Assembly (NCBI GenBank): GCA_017961575.1
Contig: JAGCXA010000021.1
Span: 2,102 to 66,101, forward strand
From: Clostridia bacterium
GTDB taxonomy: Bacteria; Bacillota; Clostridia; Oscillospirales; CAG-272
DNA length: 64,000 bases
Direction: 5' to 3'
The position numbers were made by a program, and so were the translations under genes. Under the pieces are notes generated by a model. The model saw only the letters and a program-made list of their open reading frames with translations. It ran no database searches and was not told the DNA's origin. Below are positions 2,049 to 7,455 of the stretch, in pieces (position 1 is the first letter of the stretch; each line of letters begins with the position of its first letter).

Positions 2049-3752
2049 TTACTCAGCGGAGATTAAGAAGTCATAGAGGGGCTGCCCGCCGTCCACCGCC
2101 GTCGCCTCCGCGTTCTTCCCGCAGACTTGCCCGATCAGTTCGACGACCGCTTCCCCTTCCTCCTCGGTGACGTCGGCGCCGCGGAACACGGTCAAAAACT
2201 CCGCCGTCTTCACGCCGTCAAGGAGCGCGGAAAGGCAATCGGTGCGGTCCGCGGCGTGGCAAACGATCTTGCCGCGGAGCAGTCCGAGGTACTCGCCCTG
2301 CCGGACGGTTTCGCCGTTGACGACCGAGTCGCGGACGGCGCGCGTGACCGAGAGAGACGAGACGCCCTTCATCGCCGCCTCCATCGCGTTCTTGTTGTCG
2401 TCGAGCGAACGTTCGGGATCGAACGCCATCATAACGGCGATCCCCTCCTGGATCGTGTAGGTCGGGATCACGACGACCTTCTTTTTCTTTTCAAGAAGCG
2501 CCGCCTGCGCCGCGACCATACAGATGTTCTTGTTGTTCGGGAGGACGAAAACGACCTTCGACGGGGTGGCGCGCACCTGCGTCAGGACGTCGTTGGTACT
2601 GGGGTTCATCGTCTGCCCGCCCTTGACGATCCGGTCCGCGCCGAGATCGCGGAACGCGGCGACGATCCCCTCGCCCGTACAGACCGAAACAAAGCCGTAT
2701 TCCTTCTCGGCTTTGACCTCTTTCGGGGGAAGCAGGGACTTCGTGATCTTCGCCGCGCGTTCGGCGGCGCCTTCCAGTTTGCCCGCCGCGACGGCGACGG
2801 GAGACGGCTTCTTTTCGGTCGTCAGACTGGTGTGCTGTTCGCGCATATTCTCGACCTTGACGGTCAGGAGCGCGCCGTATTTCACCGCCTCGGAAAGCAC
2901 CTTGCCGGGGTCGGAGGTATGCACGTGGATCTTGACGATCTCCTCGTCGTCGACGAAGACGGCGCTGTCGCCGGCGGAAAGGACGAAGGCGCGGAAGTCG
3001 CCGCAGGTCCCCTCTCCCTTGAACTCGACGCTCTTGCCGACGATGCACTCGGTGCAGTAGGGATAGACGATGTCCTCGGTCGAGAACTTCTCAAAGACCG
3101 TGCCGCTCCCTTCGCTTCTCGCGGCGGCGAGCGCGACCGGTTTCCCGTGCAGGGCGGCGATCATTCCTTCCAGCACGACGACGAATCCCATCCCGCCCGA
3201 ATCGACGACGCCCGCCTGTTTTAAGACGGGGAGCATCTCGGGGGTCTTGTTCAGCGTTTCGCGCGCGACGTCGAGGATCTTGTCGAAGAGTTCCTGCATC
3301 GTGGGGGGATTCAGTTTCCTCCCCGCCGTTTTCTCCGCCGCCTCGGCGGACAGGCGCATCACGGTCAAAATCGTCCCCTCGGTGGGGTTCGAGACCGAAC
3401 GGTACGCCTCCTCGGTCCCGAGTTTGAAAGCGCGGGCAATATCGGGCAGGTCGGCGCGGTCGATCTCCTTGAAAGCACGGGAAACGCCCCGGAAGAAGAG
3501 CGAGAGGATCACCCCCGAGTTGCCGCGCGCCGAACGGAGCGCCGTCGACGCGATCTCACGCGAGACTTCGTCGACCGTCTCGCCCTCGCGTCCCGCGGGG
3601 GAGATGCTGCCGAGGGTCATACTCATATTGATCCCCGTGTCGCCGTCGGGCACCGGGAAAACGTTTAAATCGTTGATTTTCTGCTTCGCGTTTTCAAGGG
3701 CGTTTCCCGCGGAAACGACCATCGAACGGAACAGAGAGCCGTTGATCTTCAT
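2049..3752 (-). CDS. yloV: DAK2 domain fusion protein YloV
   Basis: 567 aa. N-terminus MKINGSLFRSMVVSAGNALENAKQKINDLNVFPVPDGDTGINMSMTLGS is the typical DhaL/YloV signature. Confidence 0.9.
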   Translation of the reverse strand: MKINGSLFRSMVVSAGNALENAKQKINDLNVFPVPDGDTGINMSMTLGSISPAGREGETVDEVSREIASTALRSARGNSGVILSLFFRGVSRAFKEIDRADLPDIARAFKLGTEEAYRSVSNPTEGTILTVMRLSAEAAEKTAGRKLNPPTMQELFDKILDVARETLNKTPEMLPVLKQAGVVDSGGMGFVVVLEGMIAALHGKPVALAAARSEGSGTVFEKFSTEDIVYPYCTECIVGKSVEFKGEGTCGDFRAFVLSAGDSAVFVDDEEIVKIHVHTSDPGKVLSEAVKYGALLTVKVENMREQHTSLTTEKKPSPVAVAAGKLEGAAERAAKITKSLLPPKEVKAEKEYGFVSVCTGEGIVAAFRDLGADRIVKGGQTMNPSTNDVLTQVRATPSKVVFVLPNNKNICMVAAQAALLEKKKKVVVIPTYTIQEGIAVMMAFDPERSLDDNKNAMEAAMKGVSSLSVTRAVRDSVVNGETVRQGEYLGLLRGKIVCHAADRTDCLSALLDGVKTAEFLTVFRGADVTEEEGEAVVELIGQVCGKNAEATAVDGGQPLYDFLISAE

Positions 3753-3780: not shown

Positions 3781-4647
3781 TCAACGCTTATTTCCGAGGA
3801 AGAAGAGAGCGAGCGTTCCGGGTCCCGAATGGGAGCCGATCACGTGTCCGGTGTAGCCGATCTCGACCCGCTTGATCCCGAAGGTCTCCTTCACCCAGCC
3901 GGCAAGTTCCTCGGCGTCGTCCTGACAGTCGCCCTGACAGATGAAGACCGTCTGATCCTCCGGGAGGATCGCCGAGTTCTTCATATGTTCGAGAAGGGCG
4001 CGCATCGAGTTCTTGCGTCCCTTCGCCTTCTCCATATTGATGAGGTGTCCCTCGTCGTCGACGTGGAGCACCGGGCGGATGTTCAGCATCGTGCCGAGCA
4101 GAGCCGTCGCGCCGGAAATGCGTCCGCCGCGCTTCAGGTGGAAGAGGTCGTCGACGGTGAACCAATGGCAGAGGTTAAAGCGCGTCCGTTCGGCGTAGTC
4201 GAAGGTCTCGTCGATCGAGTGACCGGCGCGCGCGTATTTCACGGTATGGAAGACGAGCAACCCCTCTCCGAGCGAGGCGGCGAGGGTATCGACCACGAGG
4301 AATTTGCGGTCGGGGTACTTCTCTTTCAAGTCCTCCGCCGCGATCTTCGCCGCGTTGCAGGAGGCGCTGAGCCCGGACGAGAAGGCGAGGAAGAGAACGT
4401 CGACGCCCGACGCGAGGACCGGTTCGACTGCCTCGATGACCTCCCCGACGCTGTACGCCGCGGTCACGGCGGTGCATTTGGCGCGGAGAGCGTTGTAGAA
4501 GTCGGGATAATCCATCGTCAGCCCGTCGATCACGGTGCCGTCGGGCTTCGTCAGGGTCGTTTTCAGTTCGAGGACGGAAACGTCAAGTTCCTTGATCAGT
4601 TCGGGGGTCAGATCCGACCCCGAGTCGGTAAAAATACGAAAATCCAT
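3781..4647 (-). CDS. DegV family fatty-acid-binding protein
   Basis: MDFRIFTDSGSDLTPELIKELDV... DegV-like. Start moved to ATG 4647 (AGGAG RBS in taaggagacacaaATG). The track's 90-aa N-terminal extension translates the hairpin repeat array and crosses the promoter. Confidence 0.9.
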   Translation of the reverse strand: MDFRIFTDSGSDLTPELIKELDVSVLELKTTLTKPDGTVIDGLTMDYPDFYNALRAKCTAVTAAYSVGEVIEAVEPVLASGVDVLFLAFSSGLSASCNAAKIAAEDLKEKYPDRKFLVVDTLAASLGEGLLVFHTVKYARAGHSIDETFDYAERTRFNLCHWFTVDDLFHLKRGGRISGATALLGTMLNIRPVLHVDDEGHLINMEKAKGRKNSMRALLEHMKNSAILPEDQTVFICQGDCQDDAEELAGWVKETFGIKRVEIGYTGHVIGSHSGPGTLALFFLGNKR

Positions 4648-4726
4648 TTGTGTCTCCTTATATCGGAACCGGATGAAACCGGATGATTTCTTGCGGTTTT
4701 TCGGGCGTTTTTGCCCGTACTTTTTT

Positions 4727-4755
4727 ATTATACCACGCAATATGGTTTTTGTCAA
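4727..4755 (-). promoter_or_regulatory. SigA-type promoter of the degV-yloV operon
   Basis: Minus strand TTGACA-17 nt-TATAAT with TGg extended -10 (ttgacaaaaaccatattgcgtggtataat). Confidence 0.6.
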
Positions 4756-4791
4756 CAGATGTGCGGTTTTTTGGTGTCCGCATTTTTGAAT

Positions 4792-5143
4792 CCGCACGAA
4801 GTGCGGTATGTCATCCACGCGCAGCGTGGCATGTAATCCGTGCAGAGCACGGTATGTAATCCACCCAAAAGGTGGTATGTAATTCGCCCGCAGGGCGACC
4901 GTAACCAAGTCTTTCACTCAAAAGCGTGGAACTTACCGCTTGCGGGGCAAGCGGATTGGATTACATACTGCGCGCAAGCGCGCAGATTACATACGCGCCT
5001 GCGGCGCAATTACATACCGCCCGCGCGGCGGACGGATTACATCCACCCCTACGGGGTGATTTGGAACGACGGGGACGGATTACATCCACCCCTACGGGGT
5101 GATTGGGAACGACGGATTGCGTTCCACGCCGCGCGCGGCGTGG
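4792..5143. repeat. Hairpin array 1: 12 GC-rich palindromes joined by the constant linker TATGTAAT (left arm) / ATTACATA (right arm)
   Basis: Palindromes start at 4792, 4815, 4838, 4861, 4884, 4936, 4968, 4995, 5017, 5044, 5087 and 5124, with nine linker copies. Read directly from the sequence. Confidence 0.85.
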
Positions 5144-5158
5144 ATTCGGAAGCAATGG

Positions 5159-6067
5159 TTACGACAGGGAGAGGGTGCGCGCGATTTGGCGGGAGATCTC
5201 GCGCGGCAGATCGTCGGGGCGGACGCCGTAGGCGGAATACTGTTCGGTCAGCGCGTCGCCCGCCGCGCCGTGCAGGTAAACGGCGAGGATCGCGGCGTCG
5301 CGGGGGTCAGACCCCTGTGCGAGAAGCGAAACGAGAAGTCCGGCGAGCACGTCGCCGCTCCCGCCCTTGGCAAGCCCCGATCCGCCGGTCGTATTGACGG
5401 CGACTTCCCCGTCGGGGGAGGCGATCACGGTCCCGGCGCCCTTTAAAACGAGGGTGACGCCGTACTCTTCGGCAAAGCGGGCGGCGACGCCGACGCGGTC
5501 GGAGTTGATCTCGTCGACCGGGAGACCCGACAAGCGGGCGAATTCAAGGGGATGCGGGGTCAGGATCACGGGACGCGCGGCGACCTTCAAGCGTTCGAGC
5601 GACGTCTCGCGCGCAAGGGCGAGCGCGTTCAGGGCGTCGGCGTCGAGGACGACGGGACAGCCCGGCGCCGCGAGCAGTTCACAGAGCGAGAGACGAAGCC
5701 GATCGGAGCATCCCGAACCGCAGCCGACGAGGACGGCGGTCGCCCGCGCGGCGAGGTCAAGCGGCAGATACGCGCCGATCTTCGAGGGCGAAAACGCCGT
5801 ACCGATAACCGACGGCGCGCGGGAGAGGACGAGCGAAACGACCGACTCGCACGAGACGATCTCGACAAGCCCCGCGCCGCCCGCAAGCGCCGCCTCGGCG
5901 GAAAGGCACGCCGCGCCGCGGTATTGTTCGCTCCCGCAGTAAAGGAGGGCGCGTCCGAAGGTCCCCTTGTTGCCGTCCTCGGGACGGGCGGGGATCAGCG
6001 ACGCGGCAAACGCGGCGTCGAGTAGGCGCGGCGAGCCGATCTTCTCTTGTTCGGGCTGTTTTTTCAT
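5159..6067 (-). CDS. nnrD: ADP-dependent NAD(P)H-hydrate dehydratase (YjeF C-terminal, carbohydrate-kinase family)
   Basis: 302 aa. NKGTFGRALLYCGS...VLDADALN...GGSGLAKGGSGDVLAGL motifs. Confidence 0.85.
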   Translation of the reverse strand: MKKQPEQEKIGSPRLLDAAFAASLIPARPEDGNKGTFGRALLYCGSEQYRGAACLSAEAALAGGAGLVEIVSCESVVSLVLSRAPSVIGTAFSPSKIGAYLPLDLAARATAVLVGCGSGCSDRLRLSLCELLAAPGCPVVLDADALNALALARETSLERLKVAARPVILTPHPLEFARLSGLPVDEINSDRVGVAARFAEEYGVTLVLKGAGTVIASPDGEVAVNTTGGSGLAKGGSGDVLAGLLVSLLAQGSDPRDAAILAVYLHGAAGDALTEQYSAYGVRPDDLPREISRQIARTLSLS

Positions 6068-6895: not shown

Positions 6896-6922
6896 GCCCG
6901 GGCGGAAACGCCCGGGCTTTTT
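6896..6922 (+). terminator. Intrinsic terminator
   Basis: gcccgggcg-gaaa-cgcccgggc, a 9-bp stem plus ttttt. Confidence 0.8.
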
Positions 6923-6933
6923 CGTTTTCGAAT

Positions 6934-7359
6934 CCAAGCCGCCCGCGGCTTGGTACGTGATCCGCCCCCGTCGTTCCAAATCACCCCGGAGGGGTGGATG
7001 TAATCCATCCGCCGCGCGGATGGTATGTAATTGCGCCGCAGGCGCGTATGTAATCCGTTCGCGAAGCGGACGGTATGTAATCCGCTTGCCCCGCAAGCGG
7101 TACGGTATTCGCAAGGGACGAAAAAACCCGGCACCACCTCATCTGTCATTCCGTGACATCTTCCCCTCAAGTGGAAGACTTGGTACGTCCCCTGCGGGAA
7201 ATTCCATACAATGCTTCGCATTGGTTACATACTGCCCTTTGGATGGATTACATACCGTGCTTTGCACGGATTACATGCCACGCTTCGCGTGGATTACATA
7301 CCGCACTTCGTGCGGATTTGGAACGACGGGGGGCAGATTACATACCGCACTTTGTGCGG
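6934..7359. repeat. Hairpin array 2: inverted copy of array 1, same linker-plus-variable-hairpin architecture
   Basis: Palindromes start at 6934, 6982, 7005, 7033, 7055, 7082, 7209, 7232 (degenerate), 7255, 7278, 7301 and 7345. Linkers are TATGTAAT, then ATTACATA. Confidence 0.85.
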
Positions 7360-7455
7360 ATTTGGAACGAAACAGAAAAGTTTACATTTTGGGATGGTAT
7401 TTCAGGGAATAGTATGGTAAAATGGTAGAAGAGAAATTATGCGAAGGAGACCGAT

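Follow-up and report, generated by a model that had tools for sequence, protein, structure and literature searches.

Hairpin-linker arrays between transcription units form an apparently undescribed repeat family of uncultured gut Clostridia

Introduction

What occupies the spacer between nnrD and degV in a 64,000-nt stretch of DNA from a Clostridia bacterium (GenBank assembly GCA_017961575.1, contig JAGCXA010000021.1; the whole stretch is referred to below as the window), and does it occur elsewhere? The initial annotation of the window had described in this spacer a chain of 12 GC-rich mini-hairpins of differing sequence, joined by a constant AT-rich linker whose orientation flips midway. It had also pointed to a resemblance to repetitive extragenic palindromic sequences and bacterial interspersed mosaic elements (REP/BIME). 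We report here that this array, called array 1, is a genuine copy of an apparently undescribed non-coding hairpin-array repeat family of uncultured gut Clostridia, whose members lie between transcription units and with most regularity between a tRNA operon and a small conserved gene without assigned function. Should this be borne out, an undescribed class of extragenic repeat is carried by an entire order of gut and rumen Clostridia, abundant yet largely uncultured. Its design is unusual, with a constant single-stranded linker, hairpins that are free in sequence but strictly paired, and two arms that are structured on opposite strands.

Results

Structure of the array between nnrD and degV

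Reading of positions 4500-5400 confirmed all 12 hairpins, placed TATGTAAT/ATTACATA linkers in both arms as claimed, and located the flip of linker orientation, correctly assigned before, within 4899-4935. The flanks were also as described, with the nnrD stop codon at 5159-5161 and the degV promoter at 4755-4727 on the minus strand. The canonical orientation of array 1 is the minus strand, running from nnrD to degV. The promoter-proximal arm (arm B, 4792-4898, plus strand) contained five hairpins at 4792-4806, 4815-4829, 4838-4852, 4861-4875 and 4884-4898, with the loops GAA, GCA, AGA, CAAAA and GCA in that order; read on the plus strand, its linkers were TATGTCAT at 4807, CATGTAAT at 4830 and TATGTAAT at 4853 and 4876. 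The centre, in which the linkers change orientation (4899-4935), contained CCAAGTCTTTCAC. The distal arm (arm A, 4936-5143, minus strand) comprised the hairpins starting at 4936, 4968, ~4995, 5017, 5044 and 5087 and an outermost hairpin, H0, which is the 20-nt palindrome CCACGCCGCGCGCGGCGTGG at 5124-5143. Arm A linkers on the plus strand were ATTACATA at 4960, 4986 and 5009 and ATTACATC at 5036 and 5079, and they become TATGTAAT when the minus strand is read.

As had been stated earlier, no gene, ordinary terminator or promoter explains array 1. A scan for intrinsic terminators picked out the hairpins at 6896-6917 and 4702-4717 alone, and no hairpin of the arrays passed it. The array hairpins have no T tract, and the idea of a chain of ordinary terminators was rejected. 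Folded as single-stranded DNA, the array 1 region gave a z-score of -8.8 against shuffles.

A second, inverted array in the window

The linker motif GGTATGTAATCC, allowing up to 2 mismatches, occurred 19 times in the window compared with 1.5 ± 1.1 times in shuffled sequences (0/100 shuffles reached 19), an enrichment of ~13-fold. Nine of these matches fell in array 1, nine in a second array (6952-7346) and one was a stray at position 54, while every one of the 11 exact copies of TATGTAAT in the window lay within the two arrays. This second array, array 2, had been missed by the earlier reader and lies 2 kb from array 1. It occupies 6930-7368 (plus strand), is inverted relative to array 1, and sits between the intrinsic terminator of a cytidylate-kinase-like gene (6896-6917, plus strand), just upstream of the array, and the secA promoter. 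Compared with the reverse complement of array 1 it showed 76% identity and the same hairpin order. Its arm A (6934-7100, plus strand) began with H0 at 6934-6953 (CCAAGCCGCCCGCGGCTTGG), had later hairpins ending at 7023, 7046, 7073 and 7100, and carried TATGTAAT linkers at 7024, 7047 and 7074. The centre (7101-7200) was longer than that of array 1 and held an extra hairpin module. Arm B (7201-7368, minus strand) followed with hairpins at 7209-7223, 7232-7246, 7255-7269, 7278-7292, 7301-7315 and 7345-7359, linkers that read ATTACATA on the plus strand, and GGATTTGGAAC at its end.

Inside arm A of array 1, one composite unit of 43 bp was duplicated in tandem (5030-5115; Tandem Repeats Finder: period 43, 2.0 copies, 97% matches), and array 2 held a single copy of the same unit. 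This duplication shows that units are gained by slippage.

Copies in other genomes and metagenomes

The notion that the array has no further copies failed clearly when genomes and relatives were checked, as many were found. A scan of a genome collection with one genome per species, in which three spaced TATGTAAT motifs were required, returned at least 119 loci. Among the matches listed, ~38 were hairpin-linker arrays, all in metagenome-assembled genomes (MAGs) of gut or rumen Clostridia; the remaining loci were set aside as unrelated tandem repeats. Carriers included Acutalibacteraceae, Oscillospiraceae, Ruminococcaceae, Christensenella-like bins and one high-GC bin with at least 8 array-bearing contigs; in the MAG CAMJDE01, arrays were found on at least 8 contigs. 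A scan of gut or rumen metagenomes added ~25 arrays, so that the two scans together gave more than 60 further arrays. The GC content of array loci ranged from 0.29 to 0.63 and the stems tracked it. All arrays were intergenic, some loci of 5-8 kb contained two of them, and assemblies broke there, with short contigs ending inside arrays.

Searches of other collections were negative. Among IMG/VR viral contigs, 103 pattern matches were obtained, of which 0 had the hairpin-linker structure, and neither PLSDB plasmids nor INPHARED phages gave an array match. The comparison with Rfam suggested by the initial annotation yielded no match over the arrays: Rfam 15, applied at the gathering score and with permissive E values (up to 10 in the window) to the window and 21 related loci, reported solely tRNA, rRNA, Gut-1 and TPP matches, all away from the arrays. 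The full-text literature, searched by motif strings and by topic, returned no description of the family.

Common architecture of the family

The element consists of two convergent arms of 20-27-bp units, each unit being a short perfect hairpin plus the invariant 8-mer TATGTAAT, and the number of units varies freely between arrays. In ~40/~40 arrays with both arms visible, TATGTAAT units preceded ATTACATA units, and no reverse case was seen. The outer hairpin H0 (CCAAnCC...GGnTTGG) marks one end, and by definition the H0 side is arm A and the other side arm B; H0 has the sequence CCAATCCGAAGGATTGG where genome GC is low, and CCAAGCCG...CGGCTTGG in the window. Arrays of low or mid GC carry, in the 10 nt that precede their first ATTACATA, an inverted copy of the 5' half and loop of H0. 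This copy had 0-2 mismatches in 10/10 arrays and co-varied with H0 (CAATCCGAAG, CAAGCCGACA, CAAGCCGCCG, CAAGCCGACG); loci that carry it include L014, L019, L071, L111 and L261, and the window arrays are without it. The inverted copy could serve long-range pairing that encloses arm A, or it could be a repeated protein site. In the predicted fold of the whole strand, TATGTAAT linkers would pair with ATTACATA linkers and the mini-hairpins would form side branches.

Two further features of array composition were observed. In loci L020, L037, L087 and L111, between 3 and 8 consecutive units were the same or almost the same, as with the fourfold ccgctcaaagagcgg-TATGTAAT of L111, and such runs show recent tandem amplification of single units. 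In high-GC copies, the array centre could contain an extra module of ~100-150 nt with hairpins of its own (cctccccaacgggggagg, gtcacggcttgccgtgac, ccccctcccccgttggggagg). It was present in L129 (1440-1590), L239, L245, L249, L252 and L264 and in the window at 7101-7200, and absent from array 1 and L250. The module may represent a small separate element lying inside the larger one.

Hairpin pairing is conserved and its strand differs between the arms

For the pairing test, 65 distinct units with a 15-nt core were aligned without gaps, and the alignment bore out the proposed design of a constant linker with a variable, self-complementary core. Paired cells made up 96.7%, compared with 60.5% after shuffling and 31-38% when the partner column was slid, in a test that is slightly circular in that arrays were defined by at least 2 hairpin units, single units being unfiltered. 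In this alignment 151 cells had changed on both sides. The foot pair was C:G in 62/65 units and the loop-closing pair was C:G in 56/65, and the four interior stem pairs were free, each occurring as 4-5 pair types. Stem covariation, proposed earlier as a check on homologous arrays, was also found directly as compensatory changes in arm B units between the window and MAG contigs (L061, L252 and others), such as ccgTTc..gAAcgg versus ccgTGc..gCAcgg and ccgcGc..gCgcgg versus ccgcAc..gTgcgg.

The description of the array as the opposite of CRISPR (clustered regularly interspaced short palindromic repeats) logic was borne out as well: the constant part is 8 nt long, the variable parts are palindromes of 12-20 nt, and the two arms are opposed. 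A CRISPR array, which needs repeats of 23-50 nt, non-palindromic spacers of 25-40 nt and a single orientation, was ruled out.

Loops and mismatches were counted after orienting each unit to the TATGTAAT strand of its arm. GNA triloops outnumbered TNC triloops by 12 to 0 in arm A and 22 to 0 in arm B, and by 32 to 2 in the 113 distinct units that were collected first. Mismatches of the G:T or T:G type were likewise preferred over A:C mismatches (6 versus 0 in arm A, 1 versus 0 in arm B and 16 versus 2 in the first 113 units). Among tetraloops, cGNNAg was common, GNRA and GNYA were equally frequent in arm A (6 versus 6), gCTTGc was present, and TTCG occurred 0 times in either arm. The loops cGNAg, cGNNAg and gCNNGc are classic extra-stable DNA hairpin loops; GNRA and UUCG dominate among RNA loops. 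The loop repertoire of the arrays fits the stable DNA loops better than the RNA repertoire, on modest counts. Hairpin quality is under selection on the TATGTAAT strand of each arm; the hairpins matter as single strands, and they do so on opposite DNA strands in the two arms. Because the asymmetry of loops and mismatches flips between the arms, one unidirectional RNA cannot explain the element, and we rejected a single unidirectional RNA on this ground.

Polarity follows transcription

Arrays fill the normally untranscribed spacer between the end or terminator of one gene and the next promoter, with a polarity that follows transcription and with H0 facing the upstream unit, and many of them come directly after tRNA or rRNA operons. 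When arrays were drawn with H0 at the left, the upstream ORF was co-directional in 11/13 and the downstream ORF in 12/15, the ORF calls around related loci being heuristic. Thirteen tRNA genes adjoin arrays; all of them lie on the H0 side and point into the array, at a distance of 51-63 nt to its first linker. In L020, L064, L072 and L117, the unit upstream of the array is the end of an rRNA operon. In 22/24 listed arrays below 50% GC, TTTTTAT, the T tract of an intrinsic terminator, abuts the CCAA of H0. At the other end, an extended -10 element (TGCTATAAT, TGCTATACT or a near variant; TGCTATAnT) was found exactly 32 nt past the last linker in 14 of these 24 arrays, and the -35 element of this built-in low-GC promoter is TTGATT, made from the end of the last hairpin plus ATT. 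Low-GC arrays are thus part of a terminator-array-promoter cassette that stands before unrelated genes. In these lineages a bidirectional terminator and an outward-facing promoter of the extended -10 type stand at fixed distances from the two ends of the element, whereas in the window lineage it has neither.

At low-GC right ends (L234, L242, L053, L267), the built-in promoter lies within a short inverted repeat (CCGCC ... GGCGG), which encloses the -10 box and extends over the ribosome-binding site AAGGCGGTGAT. Unrelated genes are preceded by the same module from promoter to start codon.

Both window arrays place H0 at the 3' end of the upstream gene and arm B at the downstream promoter. Since the two are inverted 2 kb apart and each runs along local transcription, polarity follows transcription, not replication, and an orientation set by replication was rejected. 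Polarity of this kind also argues against an IS200/IS605-like insertion into the lagging-strand template.

Both array sites are empty in relatives

Relatives with NnrD proteins at 78-80% identity (L124, L126, L280, L281-283) keep the gene order secA, cmk-like, nnrD, degV, fakA, and their array-free spacers are 122-123 nt and 158-214 nt long. In L124, L126, L280 and L281, both sites that carry arrays in the window are empty, and at the empty nnrD-degV site the stop codon TAA is followed directly by AAAAACCGCACATCTG-TTGACA. The segment of the window that is missing there is 4773-5158. These empty sites indicate that 4773-5158 is an insertion in the window lineage that took place without target duplication, the polarity of the event resting on parsimony over five lineages. 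The degV promoter (4727-4755, minus strand; sigma-70 score 12/12, TTGACA-17-TATAAT with an upstream TG) lies outside the element, as it is unchanged at the empty sites. Relatives without array 2 have a terminator hairpin of another sequence where the window has 6896-6917. In the comparison of relatives, the terminator and the promoters of the window lineage are older than its arrays. In a closer relative (L129, 92%) the nnrD-degV site is occupied by an array whose centre and unit set differ. Arrays change quickly as units are gained, lost and exchanged.

Where array 1 meets the promoter side, the end of the insertion, AAAAATGCGGACA (4773-4790), resembles the adjacent native AAAAAACCGCACA (4756-4772), both read on the minus strand, and the two can pair as TGCGG/CCGCA. 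Both lie on the same side of the array and therefore do not constitute a target duplication.

A recurrent neighbour gene of family PF05635

All-against-all clustering of 639 ORFs around 36 arrays revealed a sole real recurrent neighbour family, PF05635, the other clusters being spurious ORFs that read through arrays; no recurrent transposase was seen among these ORFs. The neighbour is a highly conserved "23S rRNA-intervening sequence" four-helix-bundle protein of 115-122 aa, whose closest solved structure, 2RLD, is itself of an uncharacterised protein. We take it to be a relative of Avd, the accessory protein of diversity-generating retroelements. Among ~65 arrays identified by DNA pattern alone, the gene starts 30-60 nt past arm B in 11 (L019, L020, L094, L097, L108, L117, L235, L246, L260, L262 and L265), one of them on a contig of 59% GC. 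The PF05635 subfamily has 1561 members at E <=1e-10, and the top 120 are 84-100% identical, most of them on contigs shorter than 2 kb. Approached from the protein side (loci L269-L279 and L284-L290), the order tRNA operon, terminator, H0, array, PF05635 gene was found in 4/4 protein clusters whose contigs were examined (44-59% GC). The 64-kb window contains no PF05635 gene of this type.

We regard the link between arrays and PF05635 as a lead and kept it out of the verdict. The arrays might be the cis part of a two-part system, in which a PF05635 protein would be the trans partner that binds the hairpin/TATGTAAT units; the ancestral home would be the series tRNA operon, terminator, array, promoter and PF05635 gene, from which secondary copies would have spread to other boundaries. 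The arrangement would parallel REP sequences and their RAYT gene, with a partner that is a non-enzymatic nucleic-acid binder. We consider such a partnership unlikely. If true, it would provide the first functional handle on a very large protein family without assigned function. The links to PF05635 and to tRNA and rRNA operons, like the transcription-linked polarity and the strand asymmetry of loops that flips between the arms, were missed by the earlier reader.

Discussion

Comparison with known systems

The closest functional analogue of the arrays appears to be REP/BIME, by analogy and not by membership, and they belong to no named family that we compared. The initial likening to REP/BIME stands in that the arrays are extragenic, multi-copy, hairpin-based, present or absent between relatives, and sites where assemblies break; it does not extend to membership, given their free stems, 8-mer block, direct units and single flip. 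Like the BIMEs of E. coli and Pseudomonas, they are mosaics with inverted halves, lie outside genes and occur at the 3' ends of transcription units. In both systems the structured strand has a short conserved motif on the 5' side of the hairpin foot (GTAG in REPs, TATGTAAT with its GTAA in the arrays) and one conserved gene stands beside the repeat (RAYT there, possibly PF05635 here). A REP is an imperfect palindrome of 20-40 nt with a sequence that is constant within its family, whereas just the linker, the foot pair and the closing pair are constant in the arrays, whose hairpins are also shorter (5-8-bp stem, 3-4-nt loop). REPs alternate in orientation within a BIME, whereas here the units are direct in each arm with one flip, and polarity to transcription is fixed here, unlike in REP/BIME. 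The REP foot is defined by a 5' GT[AG]G tetranucleotide (PMC6006769). This foot is absent from the arrays, in which TATGTAAT puts GTAA one base from the hairpin foot.

Other systems share individual traits with the arrays. The BOX elements of Streptococcus pneumoniae (boxA-boxB(n)-boxC) are also modular intergenic Firmicute repeats with end modules and variable internal tandem units, a stable predicted fold and a position close to gene starts; unlike the arrays, their modules are 45-59 nt long, conserved in sequence and without constant-linker/variable-stem logic or two-arm inversion. Integron attC sites combine variable sequence with conserved structure, have short conserved inverse-complementary boxes at their two sides, lie between small genes, and are recognised strand-selectively in the form of folded single-stranded DNA. 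Each attC site is, however, a single imperfect hairpin of 57-141 nt, for which the mini-hairpins are far too short, and no integrase or attI was seen. The palindromes of Streptomyces telomeres resemble the arrays in their packed GC-rich hairpins, C-GCA-G type loops and two inverted sets, the structured strand being the one whose 3' end faces the break point. Those palindromes serve end-patching at the ends of linear replicons, whereas the arrays are internal, multi-copy and joined by a constant AT-rich linker. The subterminal hairpins of IS200/IS605 elements and their non-autonomous derivatives share with the arrays a short guide-like foot motif and insertion without target duplication. The initial annotation had taken up this likeness from an ATTAC motif beside a hairpin, and here the hint did not hold: IS200/IS605 elements have one hairpin per end, both on the same strand, and an orientation set by replication, whereas the window copies are inverted 2 kb apart and the structured strand differs between arms.

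A DNA-level reading and its alternatives

We put forward the reading that array 1 belongs to a dispersed family of non-coding mosaic repeats, REP/BIME-like and acting at the DNA level; in our estimate this is about evenly poised between right and wrong. The functional form of the hairpins would be mini-hairpins of single-stranded DNA, or cruciforms, and not one RNA. They would be presented on the strand that is displaced when the element is entered, from either side, by a polymerase or helicase or, in an equivalent view, exposed on the 3'-ended strands upon opening of the element at its centre. A trans-acting factor would recognise the constant linker, which two neighbouring stems would keep single-stranded. 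The whole would form a boundary element that a cell tolerates, or uses to insulate against read-through or supercoils where highly transcribed operons end, and whole arrays would be copied to new intergenic sites without target duplication.

Several points weigh against this proposal. Nearest-neighbour energies are equal for both strands, so that the strand preference rests on the loop and mismatch statistics together with the literature on stable loops, and both G:T tolerance and covariation fit RNA equally. Stem pairing could also be maintained without selection by templated correction of quasi-palindromes. Neither a target-site duplication (array 1 junctions compared with four empty sites) nor a clean terminal repeat was found. 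A tblastn search of the window and ~280 loci gave no Y1/RAYT gene, with approximate IS200 TnpA and YafM queries of low sensitivity. Every carrier is a MAG or a metagenome contig, and the collection patterns, in requiring perfect linkers, bias the sample of arrays. The trans-acting factor and the transposition intermediate are hypothetical, and the insulator function is one that we infer.

The main rival moves the same boundary role to RNA. Polymerases arriving from either side would transcribe the arms, and the nascent hairpin-UAUGUAAU repeats would then cause pausing or termination, or would attract an RNase or an RNA-binding protein, with selection acting on RNA hairpins of both strands. The structured strand of each arm is indeed the RNA that an incoming polymerase would make, mismatches of the G:U type are tolerated and those of the A:C type are not, gCUUGc loops are present, and the arrays lie at transcription-unit boundaries past the terminators of strongly transcribed tRNA and rRNA operons. 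A strong terminator nevertheless precedes arm A in the canonical low-GC element, arm B would require antisense transcription through the downstream promoter, the hairpins are without a U tract, GNYA is as frequent as GNRA among the loops, and UUCG is absent; we consider this insulator unlikely. A single structured non-coding RNA gene, for instance a protein sponge with repeated single-stranded UAUGUAAU sites, would account for the strong covariation, the conserved single-stranded linker and the folding z-scores of the arrays as RNA (-2.9 to -15.3). We hold it to be very improbable indeed, as every possible transcript would include the disfavoured TNC loops and A:C mismatches in one of its arms, the element has a terminator on one side and a promoter that fires outward on the other, Rfam gave no match, and the number of units is freely variable.

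The remaining alternatives keep the element at the DNA level. In an iteron array of double-stranded DNA, centromere- or operator-like (cf. parC/ParR and multi-site transposon ends), a protein would bind TATGTAAT and the GC-rich spacers would be incidental, an arrangement to which two opposed sets of a constant 8-mer with a period of ~23 bp, placed directly upstream of promoters, would be well suited. Were the spacer incidental, perfect pairing would not have survived 151 double changes, nor would the C:G pairs at foot and loop and the strand-specific loops have been kept; moreover, unit length varies over 20-27 bp, so that helical phasing is not kept. This makes an iteron array very unlikely. 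We give similarly little credence to a conventional miniature inverted-repeat transposable element mobilised through its terminal inverted repeats by a DDE transposase. The arrays are non-coding, shorter than 600 bp, multi-copy and polymorphic for insertion, and they show a weak terminal symmetry of 8-11 bp (TTCCGAATCC/GGATTCAAAAA in array 1, GTTCCAAATCC/GGATTTGGAAC in relatives); in high-GC copies it takes the form GTTCCAAATCC...GGATTTGGAAC, and the outer hairpins of low-GC copies are similar to each other. The junctions of array 1, however, show no target-site duplication, polarity is tied to transcription, and the sole recurrent neighbour among the ORFs around 36 arrays is PF05635 and not a transposase.

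Implications

The arrays have practical consequences. They break short-read assemblies, so that neighbouring genes end up on contigs of 0.5-2 kb, and they could mislead searches for non-coding RNA; they also mark transcription-unit boundaries. The family offers a natural test of the role of short DNA hairpins at the ends of tRNA and rRNA operons, it provides a compact terminator-spacer-promoter cassette in low-GC lineages, and it would give PF05635 proteins a specific, testable partner.

Other observations

Tandem direct repeats of 22 bp (TATGTAATTTCAAAATAGAAGC), in 3-6 copies, were found in Bacteroidota such as Dyadobacter, Pedobacter and Saprospiraceae, where they are intergenic and lie just upstream of genes (L008, L033, L036, L079, L083, L089, L101, L105, L110, L115). 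They share TATGTAAT and have no hairpins, look like iterons or operator arrays, and were judged unrelated to the family.

On a 5.4-kb contig (L053), two matches to Gut-1 RNA were found between two arrays, at 2519-2606 (plus strand) and 2627-2699 (minus strand), with scores of 60.2 bits, which is above the gathering score, and 38.5 bits. On this contig, terminator-array-promoter cassettes separate small genes.

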